A stretch of 64,000 bases of DNA from an uncultured candidate division Zixibacteria bacterium (GTDB lineage: Bacteria > Zixibacteria > MSB-5A5 > UBA10806 > 4484-95): assembly GCA_963668625.2 (NCBI GenBank), contig CAXXKA010000008.1, forward strand, positions 160,001 through 224,000. Reading direction: 5' to 3'. Both the position numbers and the translations under genes were made by a program. Numbering within the stretch: position 1 is the first letter of the stretch; each line of letters starts with the position of its first letter. The notes beneath the pieces are model-generated. The model did not search any database. It was given only the letters and a program-made list of their open reading frames with translations, and was not told the origin of the DNA. Below are positions 2,274 to 42,580 of the stretch, in pieces.

Positions 2274-2295
2274 GATTTTTGACCTACTCCGGCTG

Positions 2296-3951
2296 TCATC
2301 TTTTTCCCCAAAGCCGTATAGGATTCAAATGTAAATAGAAGGCACCAAAAAGTTTTAATTCGTTCAATGGTATTGGAGTATCTGATTCATTCACAAACAC
2401 GCAGCTAACTTCAGATAAGGGAGTTAACGGTGTATCTTCTTTGTTGTCGAAGTTATACCTGCTCCCATTATACCAAATTGAAAAATGCTTTGCCTTTTGT
2501 ATTGTATATAGCAATTCTGTACTTTTAATTGTTGCATAAACTTTAGTTTTGTAAACCTTTTTTTCGCATTTTTTGAAATCTTTATATACATCATATGAGC
2601 TTGCTGTGGCATAAAAAAACCTGATATTGGATACTTCTCTATTGAGAGAATCAACACCCCAAAAAGTAATTGGCTCGTCATAGTATTCAAATTTCAAATC
2701 TCTAAGTGTTATTATTCTATTAATTGTTGTAGGATGTGAATCCATTGAGCCTGAGTTAAAATTAATTTCCGCTTCGTTATAGGCATATTTTAGTTTATCC
2801 AATACCTTCTTCAAGTAAACATTACTATGGTCATCATAGACTTTGTACATATAAAGTGTTGCTATTTCATCTGCTTCTAACTCAAATCCACGTGAATACC
2901 CGGCCAAAGCAATAGTATTTGATATATTAGTAATCGACTCAGCCAAAGCTAGCGATGTATGAACAGCATCTGCATCTTCGGTAGCTAAACCTACAACGAC
3001 TCCGGTAGCTAATGTTCCAATGATTCCTAATACTTTATTATTCTCTGATTTTATCAGAGTTCTATACCCATGCCTTAACTCAACATGAGCAATTTCATGC
3101 GCTAATACTGCCTCTAATTCTCTTTCATCATCGCACAATTCTATCAGTCCTGAATGAACGAATATTGTACCGGCAGGCAAAGCAACAGCATTTGGATATG
3201 AATTGTCTACAGCAATAAAATTATATTCATAACCTCTTAATTTTAAAGGCCAATTATTTAATATTTTTTGTCCAATGTTCTTACAATAGTCCTGTAAGCT
3301 ATCGTTAACAATTACCATATTATATTTTCTATATTCAGCAGCCGCTGATTGAGCCAATGCAATCTCTTCATCAATGTTAGGAATGTGTTTAACAGCTTTA
3401 AAACAAGATGTACAATATGAGTAATCTTCATAATTACTAAGATTACTTTCAGCGATATAAATAATGTTAGGCGATAAGTGATTACAGCCCCTCAGGTGAA
3501 TTTTCTTTTTATGAGTATCTAACGCGAAATATTGATATTCTTTCTCAGTTTGATTTTTCTCGAATATTCTATCAAACAGAGATAGAATTACTTCCTTTGA
3601 AATTTTAGTCTCTTTAGGCGAAATAATACTAATTTTTTGTTTCCCTGTAACATTATTATCATATTCTATTTCGAATTTAGTATGATTACTGTTTATTTTA
3701 AATTTAGTTATTGATACCATTCTATCTTTTTTATAAAGAAAAACTCTTTTATCATCGAACTGAGCAAATACCATTGAGGTATCATATGGAGGATCTGGGT
3801 ATATTATTCTTGAGTGGTTAATTATCTTCCTTAGCAGAAACTGTCTATTTTCGTAGTCTTCTTTATCTATATCTTGACAAAAAGCTAAAGCGTTGATTAA
3901 AACGCAAGTTAATACAATCAGGAAAGAAATTCTTATAGCATTAGATTTCAT
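2296..3951 (-). CDS. Secreted M48 family zinc metallopeptidase, AT-rich
   Basis: Signal peptide; PNAVALPAGTIFV, LAHEIAHV (HExxH), ELEAD and SHP motifs; Cys/His motif upstream of the protease domain. Confidence 0.85.
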   Translation of the reverse strand: MKSNAIRISFLIVLTCVLINALAFCQDIDKEDYENRQFLLRKIINHSRIIYPDPPYDTSMVFAQFDDKRVFLYKKDRMVSITKFKINSNHTKFEIEYDNNVTGKQKISIISPKETKISKEVILSLFDRIFEKNQTEKEYQYFALDTHKKKIHLRGCNHLSPNIIYIAESNLSNYEDYSYCTSCFKAVKHIPNIDEEIALAQSAAAEYRKYNMVIVNDSLQDYCKNIGQKILNNWPLKLRGYEYNFIAVDNSYPNAVALPAGTIFVHSGLIELCDDERELEAVLAHEIAHVELRHGYRTLIKSENNKVLGIIGTLATGVVVGLATEDADAVHTSLALAESITNISNTIALAGYSRGFELEADEIATLYMYKVYDDHSNVYLKKVLDKLKYAYNEAEINFNSGSMDSHPTTINRIITLRDLKFEYYDEPITFWGVDSLNREVSNIRFFYATASSYDVYKDFKKCEKKVYKTKVYATIKSTELLYTIQKAKHFSIWYNGSRYNFDNKEDTPLTPLSEVSCVFVNESDTPIPLNELKLFGAFYLHLNPIRLWGKR

Positions 3952-4128
3952 TTTTATCCCCTATTTTTATTATTAAAAAAGACGAGATATTACCAACGTG
4001 CTCTATCACTGGTTTGTCTTTTCGTTTTTCTATAATAATTCTAATTGCTTTTCGTATTATTACAAAAATATTTTATATAATTCCATTCTCAATATTTTGC
4101 ATTAATAAAACTAGACCCATATTCCACT

Positions 4129-4187
4129 ATAAAATACTCCCCTCCCCATACATGTCAAGAATTATATTCCTTAATAGGGTGATTAAT
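4129..4187 (-). promoter_or_regulatory. 59-bp promoter-like cassette (TTGACA-16 nt-TATTTT), copy 1, upstream of the M48 gene
   Basis: 52/59 identical by manual alignment to 33087-33145 (+), upstream of the OLD nuclease. Confidence 0.65.
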
Positions 4188-4209
4188 ATTGAATGCCGAA
4201 CGTTTGACT

Positions 4210-4240
4210 AGGTCAAAACCGCAGGGGTTTTGACCTACTC
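4210..4240 (-). repeat. REP-like hairpin family B (GAGTAGGYCAAAACCCCTGYGGTTTTGRCCT)
   Basis: GTAG plus palindrome; other copies at 13189-13219 and 33040-33069, half copy at 2277-2289. Confidence 0.7.
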
Positions 4241-4292
4241 GGCCTTTATATATCCCCGTTTTCCCGGGGATGACAGCCAATGATTCAACTAT

Positions 4293-6988: not shown

Positions 6989-8839
6989 ATGAACATAGAG
7001 ATAATAAAAGAGTTTTTAGGCCAGGTAGAGCTTCTGAAGCAATTCACGACCGAGGAGTTAGAAACATTCGCAAATGCCGTGGAGCCGCGGGAGTATGAGG
7101 CCAATTCACTTTTATTCGAGGAAAACAGTCCGCGCAAATCCCTTTATTTAATATACAAGGGAGAGATAGAATTATTCAAACGTACCGCGTTCGGCAAGGA
7201 AGAACGTCTGTCTTTTTTCAGTAAATACGATTTTCTGGGCGAAGGCGCTTTCATGGATGACTACCCTCATTCTACTTCAGCCAGAACACTTCTGAACACT
7301 ACCGTATTGGCTATAAGCCGAGATGCCTTTCAGGGGTTAATCCAGACAAACCCGGCAATCGCCGGGAAAATACTTTCGGCGGTCGCTAAGGTTATCTCGA
7401 GGCGGATTCGTCAGGCCAGCACGCGCGTTACCAACATAGCCGCCCAGTATATATCGGGGCGAACCCGACAGGAACACGACCTTCTGGGTAACCGGGATGT
7501 TCCCTACGAATTTTATTACGGCGTGCAGACTCTTCGCGCTACCGAGAATTTCAATATCAGCGGTATATCGTTAACCCAGTTTCCTACGTTAATTGTGGCG
7601 CTGGCGATGGTAAAACTGGCTGCCGCAGAGGCTAATTTCGAGCTGGGGTCGTTGTCCAGCCCGATCAGGGATGCCATAGTGCAAGCCTGTAACGAGATCA
7701 TAAACGGGCGGTATCACACACAATTCGTCGTCGATATGATACAGGGCGGAGCCGGCACCTCCACGAACATGAACGCTAACGAGGTTATCGCTAACAGGGC
7801 TTTGGAGATATTGGGCTACGAACGCGGTGACTATAAATACTGCCACCCCAACAACCATGTCAACCTGTCACAGTCTACCAATGACGCTTACCCGACCGCC
7901 TTGAAAATCGCCCTTATATATTCCAACGAAAAGTTGGTAAAAGTATTGAAGCAGTTATCCGATTCGTTTTATGATAAAGCGAAGGAGTTTGCCGAGATCA
8001 TCAAGATGGGACGCACCCAGCTTCAGGATGCCGTACCGATGACACTGGGACAGGAGTTCGAGTCGTACGGTTCTACACTAGAGGAGGAGATTGAGCGTTT
8101 GAACACCAACGCCGAGTTGTTCCTCGAAATGAATATGGGGGGCACCGCTATCGGCACCGGTATCAATGCCGACCCCAATTACTCCAGGAAAGTGATCGAG
8201 CACCTCAAGGAGATTACCGGTCTCGAGGTCAGCCTGGCCCCGAACCTGGTCGAGGCAACTCAGGACACCGGGGCGTTCGTGATGTATTCCTCGGCTATCA
8301 AACGCCTGGCGGTTAAACTTTCGAAAATTTCCAACGATTTACGCCTTTTATCCTCGGGACCTCGGGCCGGTTTCAACGAGATAAACCTTCCTCCAATGCA
8401 ACCTGGCTCCTCGATAATGCCCGGCAAGGTCAATCCGGTAATCCCCGAGGTGGTAAACCAGATTGCCTTTAAAGTAATCGGTAATGATCTAACCGTCACC
8501 CTGGCGGCGGAGGCCGGTCAACTCGAGCTTAATGTGATGGAGCCGGTGATCGCCCAGAGCACGTTCGAGTCAATCGAGATGTTGAAAAACGGTATGGCCA
8601 CGTTGAAATATCGCTGCGTGGATGGTATAACCGCCAACGCGGAACATTGCCGGAAGGTGGTGCAGAACAGTATCGGGCTGGTGACGGCGCTTAATCCCGC
8701 GCTTGGCTATGAAACATGCTCATCACTGGCAAAAGAGGCGCTGGAAACCAACCGGGGCGTTTACGAACTGGTGATCGAGAGAAATCTGCTTTCCAAAGAG
8801 GAACTGGATAGACTTCTGGCGCCGGAGAATATGGTTTAA
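6989..8839 (+). CDS. aspA: Aspartate ammonia-lyase with N-terminal cyclic-nucleotide-binding domain
   Basis: GSSIMPGKVNP, GAGTSTNMNANEV and KMGRTQLQDAVP motifs; N-terminal ~145 aa has cNMP-fold motifs (LYLIYKGEI, FLGEGAF, HSTSART). Confidence 0.9.
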   Translation: MNIEIIKEFLGQVELLKQFTTEELETFANAVEPREYEANSLLFEENSPRKSLYLIYKGEIELFKRTAFGKEERLSFFSKYDFLGEGAFMDDYPHSTSARTLLNTTVLAISRDAFQGLIQTNPAIAGKILSAVAKVISRRIRQASTRVTNIAAQYISGRTRQEHDLLGNRDVPYEFYYGVQTLRATENFNISGISLTQFPTLIVALAMVKLAAAEANFELGSLSSPIRDAIVQACNEIINGRYHTQFVVDMIQGGAGTSTNMNANEVIANRALEILGYERGDYKYCHPNNHVNLSQSTNDAYPTALKIALIYSNEKLVKVLKQLSDSFYDKAKEFAEIIKMGRTQLQDAVPMTLGQEFESYGSTLEEEIERLNTNAELFLEMNMGGTAIGTGINADPNYSRKVIEHLKEITGLEVSLAPNLVEATQDTGAFVMYSSAIKRLAVKLSKISNDLRLLSSGPRAGFNEINLPPMQPGSSIMPGKVNPVIPEVVNQIAFKVIGNDLTVTLAAEAGQLELNVMEPVIAQSTFESIEMLKNGMATLKYRCVDGITANAEHCRKVVQNSIGLVTALNPALGYETCSSLAKEALETNRGVYELVIERNLLSKEELDRLLAPENMV

Positions 8840-13173: not shown

Positions 13174-13321
13174 TATTCGAGTGATATTGAGTAGGCCAAA
13201 ACCCCTGTGGTTTTGGCCTGTGTTGATGTAGATAGATAAGCGTCAGGATGTCGTACCTTCCATCCTGACGCAGGTGGTTTTGGTCAGATTCAAGTTTGAA
13301 AGCTATAGAGCTATCAACCCG

Positions 13322-13764
13322 GAGCTGTCAGGAATCCTTTCCTGACAGCTAACCGGTAGCGCGTATGTTAGCGCAGTTGAGCTTGAATATAAGCTAATGA
13401 TATGGAAGCTAAAATTAAAATAATGCTAACAGTGGTTGACATGTCTGCGGGGGTGGAGCCGTCGGGAAAGGATTCCCAACGGCTCTGGGGGAAGGACTGC
13501 CTCCGCCCCACGGCTTAAGGTATAAAAGCAAATAGTAATTTCATTGAGCGGTTAGGAATCCTTTCCTGACCGCTAACCTGTAGCGCGTTTGTTAGCGCAG
13601 CAGAGATTGAATATAAGCTAATGATATGGAAGCTAAAATTAAAATAATGCTAACAGTGGTTGACATGTCTGCGGGGGCGTAGCCGTCGGGAAAGGATTCC
13701 CAACGGCTCTGGGGGAAGGACTGCCTCCGCCCCACGGCTTAAGGTATAAAAGCAAATAGTAATT
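13322..13764. repeat. Tandem duplication (~224-bp period) of a REP-pair unit, family A, directly upstream of RAYT
   Basis: Each unit has a reverse REP (GAGCTGTCAGGAATCCTTTCCTGACAGCTAAC-like) and a forward REP (G[T/G]AGCCGTCGGGAAAGGATTCCCAACGGCT). Confidence 0.85.
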
Positions 13765-13780
13765 TGAGGGTTAAGCAAAC

Positions 13781-14347
13781 ATGCGCAGTAGAGATAGAAA
13801 ACATTACGAAGATCATGGTAATTTGTTTTTTATTACTTCAACGGTAGTAGGTTTTATGAACATTTTCAAGCAAAAGGAAGCCTGCGAAATATTCGTAAAC
13901 TGCTTGCGTTTCTATCAGGATAGAGGTGATATGAAAATACTCGCATGGGTGCTTATGCCTAATCATTTTCATCTGATAATAAAAGTTGGCGATAGATCTA
14001 ATATCTCTACCTTAATAGGAGGAATCAAAAGGTATTCCTCAAGATTATTAGGCAAACTGCTTCGGCAAAATAATGCTAAAGCCATATTAATGAAAATCAA
14101 AGAAGCAGCATTACTTGAATCTGGGAAAGGAGCATCCATTTGGAAACCGAGATTCGATAGCCTTGTGATAGTATCAGAAAGCATATTGAAACAGAAGATA
14201 GAATATATTCATTATAATCCAGTCCTAAAAGGATTTGTAGAATATCCTCATCAGTGGTATTATTCCAGTGCAACAGCTTATGATAATAGGCCAGGAATCG
14301 ACTTAGTTACTGATGCTAAATGGGAGTGCCTTGGATACGGAGCGTAG
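13781..14347 (+). CDS. REP-associated tyrosine transposase (RAYT, Y1 HUH)
   Basis: FFITSTV, AWVLMPNHFHL (HUH), IWKPRF, YIHYNPV and WYYSS motifs; flanked by family A REPs; the stop codon lies within the GTAG of a REP. Confidence 0.92.
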   Translation: MRSRDRKHYEDHGNLFFITSTVVGFMNIFKQKEACEIFVNCLRFYQDRGDMKILAWVLMPNHFHLIIKVGDRSNISTLIGGIKRYSSRLLGKLLRQNNAKAILMKIKEAALLESGKGASIWKPRFDSLVIVSESILKQKIEYIHYNPVLKGFVEYPHQWYYSSATAYDNRPGIDLVTDAKWECLGYGA

Positions 14348-14374
14348 CCGTCGGGAAAGGATTCCCAACGGCTC
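14344..14374 (+). repeat. REP family A copy downstream of RAYT
   Basis: GTAGCCGTCGGGAAAGGATTCCCAACGGCTC. Confidence 0.85.
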
Positions 14375-14702
14375 AAGGATGTTTTAATCAACCTCAACAT
14401 GCCATACTTTCCATCCCGACATATGTGATGACAACCACAAAAAAAAACCGGCATAACCAGGGCTAATAAATTTTCACCTCGTTACCAAACTCCAGTTTGG
14501 TAATGCAATTGCCTGAGAAACTCCGTTTCGAGTTTAAGCATCGGTAGTAGCCTTAGCATCAGGATGTCGTACCTTCCATCCTGATGCATGTGGTACTTTT
14601 ACTAAAATTGACCTCGTTACTCAATCAGATAGCTAATACGCAGAGATGATCAAAGAGCTGCGTCCGCCCAACGGTTCAAATAAGATTCTGATAAACAATC
14701 AC

Positions 14703-30432: not shown

Positions 30433-31797
30433 ATGAAACTTGACGAATCAATCCGGAGATCTACTAACGGATTTTGTGATCTGGGTATTAACCGTAGATT
30501 AATAACGTTGATCGATAAACTTAATTTCGAAAATCCAACTCCAATCCAAGAAGAATCTATACCGGCCGGTATTCGAGGCGACGATATAATCGCTAATGCT
30601 CGCACAGGTTCCGGCAAAACTCTGGCATTTGGAATTCCGATGATACAGCGCTTGTTGGAAAACAAAAAAGGAAAGGGGCTTATTATAGTCCCGACTCGCG
30701 AACTGGCGATTCAAGTGGCAAAATCACTCCAACCTATTATCCGTTCCTTAAATATCCGCACGGTAGTTCTGATTGGTGGAGTTTCAATATCTTTACAACG
30801 GAATACGCTTGAGAAAAATCCGCGTATTATCATAGCCACCCCGGGGCGCTTAAAGGATCACATCCAAAGAAAGACTGTCAATCTTTCCAATATAGATGTG
30901 TTTGTGTTGGATGAAGCTGATCGTATGCTTGATATGGGTTTTATTCCTGATATCAAGAAAATAATGGAATCTCTTCCCGAAAACCGTCAAACATTACTGT
31001 TCTCGGCAACTATACCGAAAGATGTTGAAGCCATTGCCGAGGAATTCATGAAATTTCCGACCCGAATCGCAGTGGACAGTTCCGGCACAGTACCAACCGA
31101 AGTTAGTCAGGAAATGTTTATCATTAGAGATCAGGATAAAACCCCGCTCCTGGTGGCACATCTAAAATTGTTTTCGGGGCCGGTTCTTGTTTTTACCAGA
31201 ACCAGAAGGAAAGCTCATAAATTGACAGCGAAAGTAAGCGGTTTTGGGTTCACCGCCGCTGAAATCCATTCCAATCGAAGCCTCGCCCAGAGGCATACTG
31301 CTCTGGAAGGATTTAAACGGGGGAAATATCAGGTTCTTATTGCTACCGATATTGCAGCTCGTGGTATTGATGTAGCAGGGATCGCTCTGGTGGTAAACTA
31401 CGATATGCCGGCGAACTCTGAAGATTATATCCACCGTATCGGTCGTACCGGCCGTGCCGGAAAAGTTGGCTGTGCTATTTCCTATGTTACAAACGGTGAA
31501 AAGAGATCTGTTATAAATCTAGAAAGATTCCTGAATACTAAATTAATTATTTCGACTCCGCCGGCCCTGGCCTCCGAGAAACTTTTCATAGAGAAAACTG
31601 ATCAAATGAATTCGAGAAGCAAACCTTCCAACGATGAAAAACTTTCGAAACCAAATTCATCAAATAGTAGCTCTTCAAGACACCGGGGCTACTCAAAGTT
31701 CAATTCCAATAACAACTCTTCGAACGGGAATAAATCAAGGCCGAAAAGATTCAAAAAAACGAATTCAAAACGTAAAAAATCAAAATGCAATGCCTGA
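30433..31797 (+). CDS. DEAD-box RNA helicase (RhlE-like)
   Basis: TGSGKT, PTRELA, TPGRL, DEAD, SAT, ARGID and HRIGRTGR motifs; basic C-terminal tail; start uncertain (track 30307). Confidence 0.92.
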   Translation: MKLDESIRRSTNGFCDLGINRRLITLIDKLNFENPTPIQEESIPAGIRGDDIIANARTGSGKTLAFGIPMIQRLLENKKGKGLIIVPTRELAIQVAKSLQPIIRSLNIRTVVLIGGVSISLQRNTLEKNPRIIIATPGRLKDHIQRKTVNLSNIDVFVLDEADRMLDMGFIPDIKKIMESLPENRQTLLFSATIPKDVEAIAEEFMKFPTRIAVDSSGTVPTEVSQEMFIIRDQDKTPLLVAHLKLFSGPVLVFTRTRRKAHKLTAKVSGFGFTAAEIHSNRSLAQRHTALEGFKRGKYQVLIATDIAARGIDVAGIALVVNYDMPANSEDYIHRIGRTGRAGKVGCAISYVTNGEKRSVINLERFLNTKLIISTPPALASEKLFIEKTDQMNSRSKPSNDEKLSKPNSSNSSSSRHRGYSKFNSNNNSSNGNKSRPKRFKKTNSKRKKSKCNA

Positions 31798-31824
31798 AAC
31801 TAGTTAATCACGATCGATATATTT

Positions 31825-32021
31825 TGAAATGCCCCCCTTTGTCCGGACCAAAAAGGTTAGAATATCTGGCAAGATGGTGATATGATTGTAGCTAAGGAGA
31901 GAATCTTGCCATGAGGAAGAAACGGAGTTTTTCAAAGGAATTTAAGAGATCGATGAGTGGAATAACGGATAACCGCCAGAACATTCTAACCCTGAATGTC
32001 CTAAATTAGGGGTGGAATCCG
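31825..32021 (+). mobile_element. Internally deleted IS3-family remnant or MITE (~197 bp)
   Basis: Imperfect terminal IRs sharing CCCC..GGAC..GGTTAGAAT..TCTGGC; RBS plus MRKKRSFSKEFKR, typical of an IS3 OrfA start. Confidence 0.6.
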
Positions 32022-32227
32022 GATAGTAATTCCTGCTTAATATTGGATTTCTATCAAGCGTGACAGTTTTAATAGAAAAGATATCCCTGAGAATAATATG
32101 TTCTTAGATTGTGTATAGCTTATTATATGCATAACTCGATGAGGTATCAAGCATCAGTGGTAGATTTGAGTGGTATCTGTATTTTGAACGCTGGCCGGTT
32201 AAGTCCCAAGTAAACTTGACTAACGAA

Positions 32228-32935
32228 CTAGATCATCACCCGCCTGATTTTCCCGCCATCTTTAAACACCCAATACGCGTTGGCCGTGCTATCTGATTTA
32301 ATCGCCTCGATTTGGTCCTCGACTATTTTCACGCAGGCGTTATCCTCAATGGCGATACCCAGGATATTCTTTTTGGCCACGAGCCGATCGAAATATTTCT
32401 TGCGGCCTACCTGCGAATCGTAATGTGGCGTGCAGGCGTAATCGAGGAAACCCAGGCCGCGGACATTTGTCCAGCGCGGGTAGTAAGCATCTGAAAGCCC
32501 CCAGCTAAACCAGCAGTTGGCGCCGGCGGAAAGACCGGCCATCACCTTGCCGCTTTTCCACGCCCGTTGAAGGCATCTGTCGACATCGTAAATACGCCAC
32601 ATCCTCATCATGGCCGGGGTCGATCCGCCTCCCACATAGACGAAATCGCAGCGGTCAATCTGACGGCGTACCGAGGCTTTCGAGCGCTGCTTGCCGTAGA
32701 GAAACAGGAAATCAGCCTTGCAGCCAAGCGCCCTCTCATAGATAGTCTCGAACGCCTCGCAATATTCGGGATCCCCCTCCGAGGCGGTAGGGATAAACAG
32801 CGCCTTTAATCTGCGCCGTCGGTTTTTACGCAGCTTATCGGCGGTAAGCACGATTTGCTCATCGATCGGGTAAGTTTCGTAATCATCAAGCTCCCCGCCG
32901 CCGATAGCGAATATGGTTTTGGACGAGTTACTCAT
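32228..32935 (-). CDS. Peptidase E (S51 family)
   Basis: IGGGE, FIPTAS, VYVGGGST, GLSAGA (nucleophile Ser) and PHYD motifs. Confidence 0.88.
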   Translation of the reverse strand: MSNSSKTIFAIGGGELDDYETYPIDEQIVLTADKLRKNRRRRLKALFIPTASEGDPEYCEAFETIYERALGCKADFLFLYGKQRSKASVRRQIDRCDFVYVGGGSTPAMMRMWRIYDVDRCLQRAWKSGKVMAGLSAGANCWFSWGLSDAYYPRWTNVRGLGFLDYACTPHYDSQVGRKKYFDRLVAKKNILGIAIEDNACVKIVEDQIEAIKSDSTANAYWVFKDGGKIRRVMI

Positions 32936-33086
32936 GATGGGGATTATACTGTCAGGATGATGGCGAGGTCAATGATATCATAGGGGAGGGGTGCGGCGTT
33001 GATCGTGTTGATTGCAGCCTAATGATTCTTTCATTGAGCGTCAAGACCGCAGGGGTTTTGGCCTACTCCAACGGCCGCCATACAGA

Positions 33087-33145
33087 ATTAATCACCCCAC
33101 GATAGAATATAATTCTTGACATGTGTGGTGAGGGGAGTATTTTAT
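33087..33145 (+). promoter_or_regulatory. 59-bp promoter-like cassette, copy 2, upstream of the OLD/UvrD pair
   Basis: TTGACA at 33116; near-identical to 4129-4187 (-). Confidence 0.65.
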
Positions 33146-33208
33146 GGGGGAGATTGGGTATGACAGCTCAATTATTTGAAGTTTTGGACATTCATGACCG
33201 GGGGAATA

Positions 33209-35269
33209 ATGTTTATTTCGCAAATTAAAATAAATAACTTTAGAAACTTTAAAAATGAAGTCGTAATAGATTTTAATCCAGGAATCAATGTTATAATAGG
33301 TGAAAATAATTCAGGTAAATCAAACCTTCTTAAAGCACTTTCACTACTGTTTGATTCTAATTCTACAAAGCGATTAGATGTTGACGATTTTAACAAAAAC
33401 ACTTCAATTGAATGCTTAAAAAGAGAACCACCTAAAGTAACAATAACAGCTTTAATTGATGAATCACAAAATGAAGAAAAATACTCAGATGATTTAGTTA
33501 CGGTATCAACGTGGTTAATTCAATTAGAAAAGCCTTATAAAGCTCAGATAACATATATATTTTCACTCCCAGAGAAGGAACATGATGATTATAGAACATC
33601 CATGAATAAGAGCAATGGTAATGATATTGAAGATTATTGGAGATTAATTAAATATAAGTTTATTAGAAAATATATATATAAACTATATGTTGGTAATCCT
33701 GAATTTGAGAATGTATTGGACTCAGATTCTATAAGTAAATTTGATTTCCAATTTTTAGATGCCATTAGAGATGTTGAAAGAGATTTATTTACAGGAAAAA
33801 ATACTCTTCTTAGAGAAGTATTAGATTTCTTTATGGACTATGATATTAAAATATCCGGCAAAGATAATAGCGAGCAACAAGAAGAGATTGATAAGAGAAA
33901 GAATGAATTTTCGGAAAATGCTAAAGTCCTAGTAGATAAACTAAAGAAACGTATGGTTGATGGTAAAAATGAAATGCTTGAATATGCCAGCTCAACAGGT
34001 GCTTCTATAAGTAACTCGATGTTAGATTTTGACGGTCATATTCTTGACACAGAATTGTACTCTGCATTAAAACTAATATTAGAATATGAAACAGGGATAA
34101 AGATACCAGCTTCAAGAAATGGCTTAGGATATAACAATTTAATTTATATATCATTATTATTAGCCAAAATGCAAAAAGACGCTAGAGGGGATTATTTAGG
34201 TAGTAATGCTAAAATATTCCCTATTCTGGCTATCGAGGAACCAGAGGCACATTTACATCCATCGATGCAATACAAGTTTTTGAAGTTTCTAAAAGATAAT
34301 CAGAAAGATAAGGCAAGGCAGATATTTATAACTACTCATTCGCCCAATATAGCATCTGCAGTTGATTTAGATGAGATACTAATATTGCAATCCAAAGATA
34401 ATGAAAACATAAAAGTATCATATCCTGGTTTAGTGTTGTCTGGGGATGAGAATAAATCGTCAAAGGCTTATGTTAGAAGATTCCTTGATGTTACAAAATC
34501 TGATATGCTTTTCGCAAAAAGAATTATATTTGTTGAGGGGATTGCAGAACAATTATTAGTATCGATATTTGCAAAGATACAGGGTATTAATATTGAAGAT
34601 AAACATATTGCTATAATTAATGTAGGTGGAAGATATTTTGACCATTTTTTAAAATTATTTTGTAACCATGATAATGGTATTTATAAAAAAGTAGCATGCT
34701 TAACTGATTTAGATCCAATGATGAGGAAAGACGGTGGAAGCTTTGAGGCTTGTTATCCTTTTGAATTAAATACTGAAGATGGTTGTGAATATAAATCTTA
34801 TTCAAATGATTTAGTTGATAAGGATTTCCCTGGTGGAAATGTACGAGTATTTAGTCAAGAAAAAGGAAGAGGGAAAACATTTGAATATGAATTGGTTTTA
34901 GCTAATCCTTGTTGTGATTTCCTAATAACTGATAGTTTACATAATAGCGCAGAAATTGCTGATTTGATGAATTCATATAATGATGATAAATCAATAATGG
35001 AAATGCTAGAAATATTGAGTGATACCGGTGTTGAAAGCAAACGTATTAGAGATGGTATGTTAAAATTAAAAACTGGTGATTGGGAGGAAGGTGAAATAAA
35101 AAAGCATCTTATTGCTGCGCGTTACTTAAATTCTGTCAACAAGGGTGAAAACGCTCTTGAGATTGCAAGCAAATTAGAAGAGAAACTAGGCAATCTCAAG
35201 GAAGGAGAAAACGTGGCATTTAACGTACCCAACTATATAAAAGACGCTCTATTATGGATAACGGAATAG
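33209..35269 (+). CDS. OLD-family ATP-dependent nuclease (ABC ATPase + TOPRIM), GajA-like
   Basis: IKINNFRNF, GENNSGKS, IEEPEAHLHP, TTHSP, FVEGIAE and TDLD motifs. Confidence 0.9.
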   Translation: MFISQIKINNFRNFKNEVVIDFNPGINVIIGENNSGKSNLLKALSLLFDSNSTKRLDVDDFNKNTSIECLKREPPKVTITALIDESQNEEKYSDDLVTVSTWLIQLEKPYKAQITYIFSLPEKEHDDYRTSMNKSNGNDIEDYWRLIKYKFIRKYIYKLYVGNPEFENVLDSDSISKFDFQFLDAIRDVERDLFTGKNTLLREVLDFFMDYDIKISGKDNSEQQEEIDKRKNEFSENAKVLVDKLKKRMVDGKNEMLEYASSTGASISNSMLDFDGHILDTELYSALKLILEYETGIKIPASRNGLGYNNLIYISLLLAKMQKDARGDYLGSNAKIFPILAIEEPEAHLHPSMQYKFLKFLKDNQKDKARQIFITTHSPNIASAVDLDEILILQSKDNENIKVSYPGLVLSGDENKSSKAYVRRFLDVTKSDMLFAKRIIFVEGIAEQLLVSIFAKIQGINIEDKHIAIINVGGRYFDHFLKLFCNHDNGIYKKVACLTDLDPMMRKDGGSFEACYPFELNTEDGCEYKSYSNDLVDKDFPGGNVRVFSQEKGRGKTFEYELVLANPCCDFLITDSLHNSAEIADLMNSYNDDKSIMEMLEILSDTGVESKRIRDGMLKLKTGDWEEGEIKKHLIAARYLNSVNKGENALEIASKLEEKLGNLKEGENVAFNVPNYIKDALLWITE

Positions 35270-37044
35270 ATACAATAACTCTTAAAGACTCCGATGAATT
35301 GCTTAATGATATTGAGCATCATTTTAAGCTTATTGCCGGCCCCGGTGCGGGTAAAACGCGTTGGTTGACTAATCATATAAAAAATGTCCTTCATAATTCT
35401 AAAAGGTTAAAAAAATGTAGGAAAATTGCTTCTATTACATATACAAATGTCGGGGTTAATACAATTCGTGAGAGGCTTGGCGAAGTATCCGAGCATGTTG
35501 AAGTAGCTACTATTCATAGTTTCCTTTATAAACACATTGTCAAACCTTACATATTTTTACTTGCTGATGAATATAATATTAATGTTGCCCTAATTGATGG
35601 CCATGATGAACATATCGTTCGAATTAAAAAAGTAAAAGAATGGATAAGTAATAATATTAGACAACTCCGATACCTTTATAAGGATTTAGATTTAACTAAA
35701 CAACACTTAGCCAATTTATCTTGGTATTATGAAGAAGATGATTGTTTATTAAAGGTGAGAGATCATAAGGACTATAATAAACGATTCAAATTGGATGATG
35801 GAAGCCAATTGCCTTTTATTTTAGATTATAAAAAGCATCAGCAAATATATTTTCAGTATAAACAAACTTACTGGGGAGATGGCATTATAGACCATGAAGA
35901 TGTGCTCTTTTTTAGTTTTCAATTAATTAATAGATTTGAGGAAGTTAGAAGGATATTGAGGTCAAAGTTCCCTTATTTTTTTTTAGATGAATTTCAGGAT
36001 ACGCATCCGATTCAGACTAGCATAATATATAGATTAGCTGAAGATGAAACTATTATAGGTGTTATTGGAGACGATGCTCAGTCTATATACGGTTTTCAGG
36101 GTGCTGATCTTGAACAGTTCAGGAATTTTTCTTTGCCAAGTATTAAGATTTATAAAATAGAAAATAATCATCGAAGCACAAATGATATAATAAAAGTACT
36201 AAATCATATGAGGGATGATCTTGTACAAAAAAACATTGAAGATAAAACCGGAAGAAGGCCAACCTTAGTTATAGGAGAAATTCCAAGAACGATCAAGAGA
36301 GTTGAAAAATTAGTAAATAATGATCTATTTAGTCTAAGTTATGCCAACGTCACCGCAAATGAAATGAAATATGGAATAAACAGGCCGACAGGCGGTGGTA
36401 TTTATGATATTTTTAATGATAGTAATTATTCTAGAATGAAATTAATGATAGCGGCTATTAATGCTGTGGAATATGCAAGATATAATCAATTTCGAGATTC
36501 GATTAAATCATTATCTAATCGTTTAAAAATTCAAGATAAATTTAAAAGGAATAGCTTAGCTTTATCAATAGTGAAAGCATTATTAAATGAGTATAACTCT
36601 TTCAGATCTGTCAAGCTTATTAGTTTTTATAATATTTTTAAAGATACATATGAAAAGTATTCAATTGATAAAGTGCCATCTCTTAGAAACAATACAAAGC
36701 CATATGAATTTTATAATTCCATTACTTATAAAGAAGTCGCTTTGTACGTTAGATTCAATGAAGAAGAAAGCAGGCATAGAACTATCCATAAATCAAAAGG
36801 TGAAAATCTGAAAAATGTTTTAGTTGTGGTTAGAGGTAAGTTTGGGAGAGAATTCGATGAAACAGATGATTTAAGCTTTCTTTTAGTGCCTAACTTAAAC
36901 GACGAAAATCATCGAGTCTATTACGTCGCCATGAGCCGAGCTGAGGAAAATTTATTTATTAATGTTCCTTCTTTAACGGATGGTAGTAAAGAAAAGCTTC
37001 GGGAAATAGGATTCGATATAATGGATATTGGTCAAACAGGTTAA
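35254..37044 (+). CDS. UvrD/Rep SF1 helicase, GajB-like
   Basis: AGPGAGKT, ITYTN, TIHSF, DEFQDT, GDDAQSIYGF, NHRS, TIHKSKG and YVAMSRA motifs; overlaps the OLD gene. Confidence 0.9.
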   Translation: MDNGIDTITLKDSDELLNDIEHHFKLIAGPGAGKTRWLTNHIKNVLHNSKRLKKCRKIASITYTNVGVNTIRERLGEVSEHVEVATIHSFLYKHIVKPYIFLLADEYNINVALIDGHDEHIVRIKKVKEWISNNIRQLRYLYKDLDLTKQHLANLSWYYEEDDCLLKVRDHKDYNKRFKLDDGSQLPFILDYKKHQQIYFQYKQTYWGDGIIDHEDVLFFSFQLINRFEEVRRILRSKFPYFFLDEFQDTHPIQTSIIYRLAEDETIIGVIGDDAQSIYGFQGADLEQFRNFSLPSIKIYKIENNHRSTNDIIKVLNHMRDDLVQKNIEDKTGRRPTLVIGEIPRTIKRVEKLVNNDLFSLSYANVTANEMKYGINRPTGGGIYDIFNDSNYSRMKLMIAAINAVEYARYNQFRDSIKSLSNRLKIQDKFKRNSLALSIVKALLNEYNSFRSVKLISFYNIFKDTYEKYSIDKVPSLRNNTKPYEFYNSITYKEVALYVRFNEEESRHRTIHKSKGENLKNVLVVVRGKFGREFDETDDLSFLLVPNLNDENHRVYYVAMSRAEENLFINVPSLTDGSKEKLREIGFDIMDIGQTG

Positions 37045-37146
37045 CCGCCCCCCATAAAAAACCCCAACCGCAATCTTGCTTTTCTCCCCGAAATCTGTTA
37101 TATATCACCCCTTAAATGACGATATCAACTTAAACTGGAAAAACTT

Positions 37147-38544
37147 ATGGATTATTACAAACGAATCAAAATCGCCCAAATTCTCAAACAGGCCGATAAG
37201 GCCGTCGATGATGCCATCGTTTTAGGCTGGGTGCGCACCCGGGCCGATAAACCCAATATGACCTTTTTGCAGGTCAATGATGGCAGCACACTTAATAATC
37301 TGCAGATATTCGTGGAAAATCCCGAACGGTTCGCTGATATCGAGAAGATGAAAACCGGCAGCTCGATCCGCGCCCAGGGCAAACTCGTGCCCGCCCCGGA
37401 TCGTCCGCATAAGATAGAACTTCACCCGGAAAGCCTGACATTATTAGGCGAGTGCCCCTCCGATTACCCGATGCAGAAGAAACGTCACTCGTTCGAGTAC
37501 CTTCGCGAGATAGCTCATCTGAGGCCCCGCTCCAACACGTTTGGGGTGATCAACCGGTTCCGCTCCAAGATGGCTTACGCGGTGCATAAATTTTTCCAGG
37601 ACAGGGATTTTTACTACATCCACTCGCCCATAATCACGGCCACTGATGCCGAGGGCGCCGGCGAGACATTCCGGGTAACCTCGCTTGATATGAAGAACCT
37701 GCCCATGGCCGAGGGCGCTATCGATTACAACGAGGACTTTTTCGGCATGGAGACATTCCTGTCGGTATCGGGACAGCTCGAGGCCGAGATACTGGCTACG
37801 GCAATCGGGGATGTTTACACGTTCGCGCCCACTTTCCGCGCCGAGAACTCCAACACCAGCCGTCACCTGAGCGAGTTCTGGATGATCGAGCCGGAGATGG
37901 CGTTCTGCGACCTGTTCGAGGATATGACCTTAGCCGGTGAGTTCCTCAAGTACCTGTTCCAGTTCGGACTCGAGAACTGTGCCGAGGAGATGGCGTTTTT
38001 CGACAAGTGGATTGACAAGGACCACATCCGGATAAAGACCCTGGAGAAAGTGATCAACACCGATTTCATCCAGTGCGAATACGGCGAGGCGGTGGATATA
38101 CTGATGAAGGCCAAAAAGAAATTCGAGTTCCCGGTTAGCTGGGGAACCGATTTGCAGTCCGAACACGAGCGATATCTGTGCGAGGAGTATTTCAACGCGC
38201 CGGTGATGGTGTACAACTATCCCCGCGATATCAAGGCGTTCTACATGCGCGTAAACGATGATGAGAAAACCGTAGCGGCCGTGGATGTCCTGGTGCCGCT
38301 GGTGGGCGAGATTATCGGTGGCTCCCAGCGCGAGGAGCGTTTCGATGTGTTGGAGAGCCAGATCGAGAAGTTCAATATCCGCAAGGACACGGTTGACTGG
38401 TATCTCGATTTGCGTCGATTCGGCACGGTACCGCATGCCGGTTTCGGGCTGGGGTTTGCGCGGGTACTGATGTATATGTCGGGGATGACCAATATCCGTG
38501 ATGTCATCCCGTTCCCGAGAGTGCCCCGCTGGGCCAAGTTTTAG
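37147..38544 (+). CDS. asnS: Asparagine--tRNA ligase
   Basis: GWVRT, NDGS, AHLRPRSN, FRAENSNTSRHL, EIIGGSQRE and PHAGFGLG motifs. Confidence 0.96.
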   Translation: MDYYKRIKIAQILKQADKAVDDAIVLGWVRTRADKPNMTFLQVNDGSTLNNLQIFVENPERFADIEKMKTGSSIRAQGKLVPAPDRPHKIELHPESLTLLGECPSDYPMQKKRHSFEYLREIAHLRPRSNTFGVINRFRSKMAYAVHKFFQDRDFYYIHSPIITATDAEGAGETFRVTSLDMKNLPMAEGAIDYNEDFFGMETFLSVSGQLEAEILATAIGDVYTFAPTFRAENSNTSRHLSEFWMIEPEMAFCDLFEDMTLAGEFLKYLFQFGLENCAEEMAFFDKWIDKDHIRIKTLEKVINTDFIQCEYGEAVDILMKAKKKFEFPVSWGTDLQSEHERYLCEEYFNAPVMVYNYPRDIKAFYMRVNDDEKTVAAVDVLVPLVGEIIGGSQREERFDVLESQIEKFNIRKDTVDWYLDLRRFGTVPHAGFGLGFARVLMYMSGMTNIRDVIPFPRVPRWAKF

Positions 38545-42506: not shown

Positions 42507-42580
42507 GGGCGGTTAGCTCAGTTGGTTAGAGCACCTGCCTTACACGCAGGGGGCCGCAGGTTCGAGTCCCGCACCGCCCA
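42507..42580 (+). tRNA. tRNA-Val (TAC)
   Basis: Cloverleaf: acceptor GGGCGGT/ACCGCCC, anticodon arm CCTGC-CTTACAC-GCAGG, TTCGAGT T-loop; one A-C mismatch in the T-stem. Confidence 0.92.

Follow-up and report, generated by a model that had tools for sequence, protein, structure and literature searches.

A putative REP-linked promoter module at the borders of two acquired loci in an uncultured Zixibacteria genome

Introduction

Why should nearly the same short piece of non-coding DNA, each time beside a REP hairpin, stand in front of two unrelated and AT-rich loci of one bacterial genome? The question is raised by a window of 64,000 nucleotides (the whole stretch of DNA analysed here) from an uncultured member of the Zixibacteria, in which a 59-mer lies upstream of an M48 peptidase gene and again upstream of a pair of genes encoding an OLD-type ATPase and a UvrD-type helicase. 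A first, sequence-only reading of the window had proposed a portable promoter or landing pad that expresses newly acquired genes, loosely analogous to the Pc promoter of integrons and possibly spread together with REPs. The explanation that we prefer, and which we regard as evenly poised between right and wrong, is that a REP-linked promoter module of ~120 bp has been duplicated once in the genome and now heads two acquired loci, a case of promoter reuse. We infer the promoter activity of the module, the selection on its core and the route by which it was copied from the sequence. One of the two loci is a predicted Gabija defence system, and the host belongs to an uncultured and little studied phylum.

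The shared module

The 59-mer is found at both positions and on both strands given by the sequence-only reading, with 52/59 identical nucleotides (88%) between the copies, and reading of both loci bore out that each copy is oriented into the adjacent low-GC cargo. The two copies and the longer module in which they lie are the following.

4129..4187, minus strand: 59-mer, copy 1, upstream of the M48 gene; -35 TTGACA at 4158-4153, -10 TATTTT at 4136-4131
33087..33145, plus strand: 59-mer, copy 2, upstream of gajA; -35 at 33116-33121, -10 at 33138-33143
4115..4234, minus strand: 120-nt module, copy 1, made up of REP, 23-nt spacer, 59-mer and ~14 nt
33040..33159, plus strand: 120-nt module, copy 2, in ungapped alignment to 4115-4234

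Five of the seven mismatches in the 59-mer pair are concentrated in a single 7-nt block. According to BLAST and MAFFT, the homology is longer than 59 nt and extends without gaps over ~120 nt, with 95/120 positions (79%) identical. It runs from the REP hairpin through the spacer and the TTGACA-16-TATTTT motif to ~15 nt beyond the -10, where DNA similarity stops. The identity between copies 1 and 2 is distributed unevenly over these blocks:

REP: 23/29
Spacer: 11/18
ATTAATCACCC: 11/11
Variable block: 2/7
Core: 39/41
Next 16 nt: 10/16
Beyond the next 16 nt: none

The pattern of the 41-nt core, identical at 39/41 positions, matches solely 4129-4169(-) and 33105-33145(+) in the window, and 100 dinucleotide-preserving shuffles gave 0 matches. 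The two module copies are 29 kb apart and in opposite orientation, and by-eye reading of both sequences revealed no small ORF in a frame common to them. Contigs assembled independently (two runs of one sample) span 30916-37866 with zero differences, so the junctions of the Gabija locus are not an assembly artefact, and the core of copy 1 is present on one further contig. No empty-site allele was found among the sample contigs, which come from one sample and one study. As a separate observation, the spacer of copy 1 (window 4193-4213) contains a 19-nt exact match to the inside of a ruvB-like gene on another contig (C6:440093-440111); the match extends to 25/26 with one gap (BLAST E 0.002) and may be due to chance.

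Two foreign cargo loci

The genes downstream of the module had been described as an M48 peptidase and as an OLD-type ATPase with a UvrD helicase, all AT-rich, and this description holds: their GC content is 30-31%, against 45% for the genome.

2296..3951, minus strand: Peptidase_M48 gene, 551 aa, ~30% GC; Peptidase_M48 E 8e-27
33209..35269, plus strand: gajA, OLD-family ATPase/TOPRIM nuclease, ~31% GC; PADLOC GajA E 6e-281
35254..37044, plus strand: gajB, UvrD-type helicase; PADLOC GajB E 3e-200

Both cargo loci are foreign and horizontally acquired. They are set among host genes of ~50% GC, encoding a response regulator, a SpoIIE/GAF phosphatase, an S51 peptidase and an asnS-type synthetase. 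The M48 protein has no PADLOC match, and the proteins most similar to it, at 74%, 53% and 51% identity, are rare and metagenomic. It occurs in 5/284 other genomes of the phylum, at <=39% identity, and in 0/23 genomes searched within its own order. Its subfamily, of 550 aa, is rare and almost never found outside metagenomic contigs; the nearest named homologue, at 38% identity, is from candidate division GN15. The protein has an N-terminal signal-like segment and 220 aa without a Pfam match ahead of the protease domain. In a genome of the same genus (G001) synteny downstream of the SpoIIE gene is lost, so that an empty site for the M48 locus is not definable. Elsewhere in the window, at 6989-8839, lies a gene whose product joins a cyclic-nucleotide-binding domain, at the N-terminus, to a lyase of the class II fumarase/aspartase type; G001 has the same fusion, at 80% identity.

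The OLD/UvrD pair, adjacent and overlapping, is a predicted Gabija system composed of GajA (ATPase and TOPRIM) and GajB. For GajA the most likely start is 33209 and not 33176, since the first residue covered by the PADLOC model is number 12 of the longer ORF. The closest relatives of GajA belong to other phyla and do not exceed 61% identity. In G001 the genes for the S51 peptidase and the asnS-type synthetase are adjacent and divergent, separated by a 216-bp spacer that holds neither the REP nor the 59-mer nor a Gabija system. The promoter-like sites of these two genes are conserved there:

32943..32972, minus strand: promoter-like site of the S51 peptidase gene, TTGACC-18-TATAAT, conserved in G001
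37074..37107, plus strand: promoter-like region of the asnS-type gene, TCTTGCTTTTC ... TTATATATCA, conserved in G001; right limit of the Gabija insertion

The empty slot and the conserved promoter sites bound the Gabija insertion to ~32975-37073, and the conservation of both -35/-10 sites indicates that the lineage uses canonical promoters. The insert is bracketed by an imperfect inverted repeat of 17 nt (15/17), at 33134-33150 and 37049-37065; the left arm of the repeat overlaps the -10 and start region of the module, and the gajB stop codon precedes the beginning of the right arm by 5 nt. No counterpart of this inverted repeat was found at the M48 insert, and no REP remnant at the far end of the Gabija insert.

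The REP hairpin

Each copy of the module begins with a hairpin of one REP family, and a further half REP lies at the other end of the M48 gene.

4211..4240, minus strand: REP of copy 1, GTAG head, 0 mismatches to the family core; hairpin DNA fold z = -4.5
33039..33068, minus strand: REP of copy 2, 3 mismatches, weakened stem; DNA fold z = -0.6
2277..2289, minus strand: half REP (left arm only), right behind the M48 stop codon; direct repeat of the REP arm 4228-4245

The REP cores lie 23 and 18 nt from the 59-mers, in keeping with the ~20 bp reported earlier, and the half REP that had been placed at the far end of the M48 gene is real. In copy 1 as in copy 2, 23 nt separate the hairpin stem from ATTAATCACCC, and this equal spacing argues that at least the proximal REP arm lies within the duplicated unit. 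The REP loop, read towards the promoter, is inverted between the copies (CCTGC vs GCAGG), which means that the module may not include the REP as a rigid part; such an inversion could result from template switching in the palindrome, or the second REP could be an independent one in the opposite orientation. Immediately before the REP of copy 1, and on the same strand, the SpoIIE-type phosphatase gene has its terminator-like hairpin.

The hairpin has the characteristics of GTAG REPs and REPINs, being a short imperfect palindrome with a GTAG head, present in multiple copies and extragenic. There are 31 copies in the genome at up to 6 mismatches, and the REP recurs in 15/25 relatives, distributed over two families of the order; its stem varies there in a compensatory manner, and a control search with the reversed pattern found 0. 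Only 2/31 REPs carry the 59-mer, the other 29 being without it, and the 59-mer is not part of the repeated REP unit. The REP is old and lineage-native, in contrast to the promoter part, which is private to the present genome. Of the suggested link with REPs, the physical tie of the module to a REP at identical spacing in both copies is supported.

Transposase genes of the type associated with such repeats are present: the Y1_Tnp family (PF01797) has 8 matches in the genome, 7 of them over the Pfam cut-off. One lies inside the window.

13781-14347: RAYT-like gene, 188 aa, HUH motif; the only Y1_Tnp noted inside the window

This gene is flanked on both sides, at ~13678-13705 and 14343-14375, by a different GTAG-headed hairpin repeat. 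The surrounding region (window 13300-14600) holds a cluster of several other short repeat families, and a tandemly duplicated unit of ~230 nt precedes the RAYT-like gene.

Promoter-like features and conservation of the core

Both copies contain TTGACA and TATTTT separated by 16 nt, which amounts to 10/12 against the sigma-70 consensus, and the spacer falls within the 16-18 nt taken as the criterion for a sigma-70 promoter. The AT-rich blocks ATTAATCACCC and GAATATAATTC are located at the position of an UP element or operator. Transcription is predicted to start near 4127(-) in copy 1, ~175 nt before the M48 ATG, and near 33150(+) in copy 2, ~60 nt before the GajA ATG. The 59-mer of copy 2 occupies -122..-64 relative to the ATG at 33209; that of copy 1 occupies -236..-178 relative to the ATG at 3951, which is far for a promoter, and three more promoter-like matches lie nearer to the M48 start. 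Such matches are close to chance level in the AT-rich module regions, with 4 found vs 2.7 expected and 3 vs 1.8 expected. Two RNA-based candidates were rejected: the 188-nt M48 leader does not qualify as a structured leader (fold z = -1.3), and the only Rfam match in the window is a tRNA at 42507-42580, away from the module.

Within the 91 non-REP positions the best 41-nt window contains 39 matches, a value that was reached in 693/100,000 permutations of the match pattern (p ~0.007) and is moderately significant; the longest perfect run, 20 nt, was equalled in 9,394/100,000 permutations and is not unusual. A Fisher test on the blocks gives 4e-6, a value inflated by the post hoc choice of the blocks. 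That the core has stayed near-identical while the flanks drifted suggests selection on a promoter or operator function, and a short gene-conversion patch could yield the same picture of conservation.

Copy number and distribution

The genome searched comprises 4.30 Mb in 10 contigs and is 95.9% complete. Within it, blastn-short finds the promoter part at two sites only, and an nhmmer --max profile returns two hits (E 1e-22 to 1e-24), with the next best at E > 6. BLAST of 60 relatives with a 71-nt query gave only four matches of 19-44 nt (E 0.002-0.005), taken as noise, and an 84-nt BLAST query gave 0 matches at E <= 0.001 in 284 other genomes of the phylum. Exact-pattern scans, which miss copies diverged beyond a few percent, gave 0 matches for a 25-mer spanning -35 to -10 in genome, metagenome and viral contig collections, 0 for a 34-letter pattern over the upstream blocks in metagenome contigs, and 0 for a 20-mer in viral contigs. 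Plasmid and phage collections contained 0 matches to the module, and upstream of the 80 nearest GajA relatives (all <=61% identical) nhmmer found nothing better than E 8.6. The nearest relatives are distant, the asnS product being 74% identical in G001, and absence from them is therefore uninformative on events younger than the genus. In a repeat census of the genome, 1,184 loci of 35-200 nt proved to be repeated at >=80% identity, and 438 of these had only one partner; short repeats are so common that a two-copy repeat is unremarkable by itself.

The sequence-only reading had called for a BLASTN search of the genome and its relatives and had named the finding of only these two copies as the outcome that would speak against it; only these two copies were found, and the notion of a portable family is not supported. 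Its promoter claim survives in part, namely as a sigma-70-type match of 10/12 that faces the cargo and has been copied at least once.

Behind one other REP, at C1:6840 (C1:6795-6869), an 18-nt stretch matches the left part of copy 2 (p=0.003 by Smith-Waterman). The match lies at nearly the distance seen in the copies, with ATTAATCATC 26 nt after the REP, and a weak resemblance to the -35 region accompanies it. The site is without the promoter core and has normal GC and no clear downstream gene, the spacer around it being gene-poor and 1.15 kb long; either chance or the decay of a third, cargo-less copy may account for it.

REPs were also compared with the positions of low-GC DNA. A 1-kb flank of <33% GC borders 5/31 REP copies, or 4/24 REP loci, as against 3.1% of random sites. 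With ORF-free sites as background (6.1%) the proposed enrichment of REPs at low-GC DNA is not significant (4/24, P=0.056), there is no excess at a threshold of 36% GC, and two of the four loci are those that had prompted the idea. The module is absent from the other two (C6:234889-236022 and C8:151399-153407; p >=0.05). At the first, a candidate third promoter copy at C6:234825 was rejected, since it consists of an 11-nt match after the -10 with p=0.05 vs copy 1 and 0.95 vs copy 2. Here (C6:234889-236222 with the REPs) a lone 377-aa ORF of 28% GC stands between normal-GC genes, with one REP overlapping its stop codon, a second REP 177 nt further on and a promoter-like site of its own, TTGACT-17-TAAATT. 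At the second, the REP at C8:153505, upstream of two low-GC ORFs, was likewise rejected, showing no similarity to the module. These ORFs of ~30% GC (262 and 288 aa, minus strand) lie together with the REP in C8:151399-153534, 6.5 kb before the window, and the REP is ~100 nt upstream of the first of them.

Origin of the arrangement

In the duplication that we prefer, the unit would consist of the lineage-native GTAG-type REP hairpin, a 23-nt spacer and a sigma-70-type promoter with AT-rich upstream blocks; a resident REP-linked promoter of this kind would have been copied once within the genome. Both copies now mark the exact 5' border of acquired AT-rich DNA, namely the M48 gene and gajA-gajB. 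The copies would most likely drive this cargo, from the starts predicted near 4127(-) and 33150(+), with the REP as a hairpin upstream of the promoter. As to the copying route, we favour REP-associated recombination, or a RAYT-type transposase that would co-mobilise the REP and its flank. The arrangement is not a gene-capture system but a single, two-member case of promoter reuse.

The main rival view, which we consider unlikely, is that imported cassettes share the module as their conserved left end; promoter and cargo would then have arrived jointly, and twice, by REP-seeking integration next to or into REP hairpins. Such an origin would account for the low GC that starts at the module in both loci, for the foreign nature of both cargoes, for the REP-arm direct repeat that brackets the M48 insert and for the 17-nt imperfect inverted repeat that brackets the Gabija insert. 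It sits badly, however, with a module whose REP half is lineage-native and held at a fixed spacing, which has no copy in any collection searched and which is carried by 0/80 of the nearest GajA loci. The M48 insert, moreover, is without a matching inverted repeat and the Gabija insert without a far-end REP remnant, and no recombinase gene adjoins either locus.

We consider it quite unlikely that the pair is a functionless relic, that is, an old segmental duplication or a gene-conversion patch between REP-adjacent spacers which looks like a promoter by chance in AT-rich DNA. Each copy stands exactly at the border of the cargo and is directed into it, the conservation is focused on the -35, the -10 and the two AT-rich upstream blocks, the match of TTGACA with its 16-nt spacer is strong, and the conserved stretch is broken by the 7-nt variable block in a way unusual for a conversion tract. 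These features are to be set against the abundance of short repeats (1,184 loci, 438 of them single-partner), the near-chance level of the promoter-like hits and the possible partial copy at C1:6840, which has neither core nor cargo.

That the mobility of the REP itself carried the promoter seems to us very unlikely. A RAYT, or REP-primed recombination, would in that event have copied the REP together with ~90 nt ('flank transduction') and so placed a ready-made native promoter at the margin of acquired AT-rich genes that would otherwise be poorly expressed. The fixed spacing, the half REP at the far end of the M48 gene and the site at C1:6840 are compatible with flank transduction without demonstrating it; if it were true, REPs would be vehicles for domesticating foreign genes.

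Scarcely credible, finally, is a dedicated landing pad or portable expression platform that captures genes in the manner of an integron Pc and is spread by REPs, for although 2/2 copies adjoin REPs and are occupied by foreign genes and 4/24 REP loci border DNA of <33% GC, only two copies exist in all collections searched, the other two REP/low-GC loci are without the module, the link between REPs and low GC reaches P=0.056 against ORF-free sites with the prompting loci included, and there is no integrase, attC-like site or array.

Should the promoter prove active, the duplicated module would be a natural example of acquired genes gaining expression by the reuse of a resident, REP-tied promoter.

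Comparison with known systems

In integrons, acquired genes are expressed from the Pc promoter upstream of them; the platform comprises the IntI integrase and attI, and promoterless cassettes ending in attC are lined up in an array. The present module resembles Pc in being a promoter-like element ahead of acquired genes, and the likeness to a landing pad drawn in the sequence-only reading goes no further than this, as only two copies exist and neither an integrase nor an attC-like site lies beside either of them. No integron integrase or attI was found next to the module, the neighbours being the response regulator, the SpoIIE phosphatase, the S51 peptidase and the asnS-type synthetase, and the repeat scan detected no 3'-end element common to the cargo loci that could indicate an attC-like array. 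In contrast to an integron, each cargo has its own copy of the promoter and the loci are separate. The Gabija pair recalls a variable slot of the minimal-mobile-element kind, as it lies between the S51 and asnS genes that are adjacent in G001, the one distant relative compared.

The hairpin of the module is like the GTAG-type REPs of Di Nocera et al. (2013; PMC3733652), being a GTAG-headed, multi-copy, extragenic imperfect palindrome in a genome with Y1 (HUH) genes. It differs from GTAG REPs and REPINs in that the promoter part lies outside the REP family and the RAYT-like gene of the window is flanked by a different repeat. With MITEs and Correia elements the module shares the character of short, gene-less DNA able to put a promoter before unrelated genes (PMC3575422). 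Unlike a MITE with an outward promoter, it has two copies only, and no terminal inverted repeats or target-site duplication surround its 120 nt.

The closest parallel is offered by the putative mobile promoters (PMPs) of Matus-Garcia, Nijveen and van Passel (2012; commentary PMC3575422), which are similar stretches of non-coding DNA before non-homologous genes of one genome. They are defined by >=80% identity over >=50 nt upstream of unrelated genes, in a window of -150..-50, and form >4,000 families, mostly pairs, with a mean identity of 92%; their mechanism of mobilisation is unknown, and REPIN, ERIC and Correia elements have been named as promoter carriers (PMC3575422). The pair described here lies within the limits of identity and length at 52/59 (88%) over the 59-mer, the identity over 120 nt being 79%, and its downstream genes are non-homologous, Peptidase_M48 and AAA_15/OLD-TOPRIM having no common Pfam family. 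In position, copy 2 falls inside the window (-122..-64) and copy 1 outside it (-236..-178). What distinguishes this pair from the PMPs is that both downstream loci were horizontally acquired and that a REP is attached at a fixed spacing, so that it adds one data point to the literature on promoter reuse together with a hint of REP involvement.
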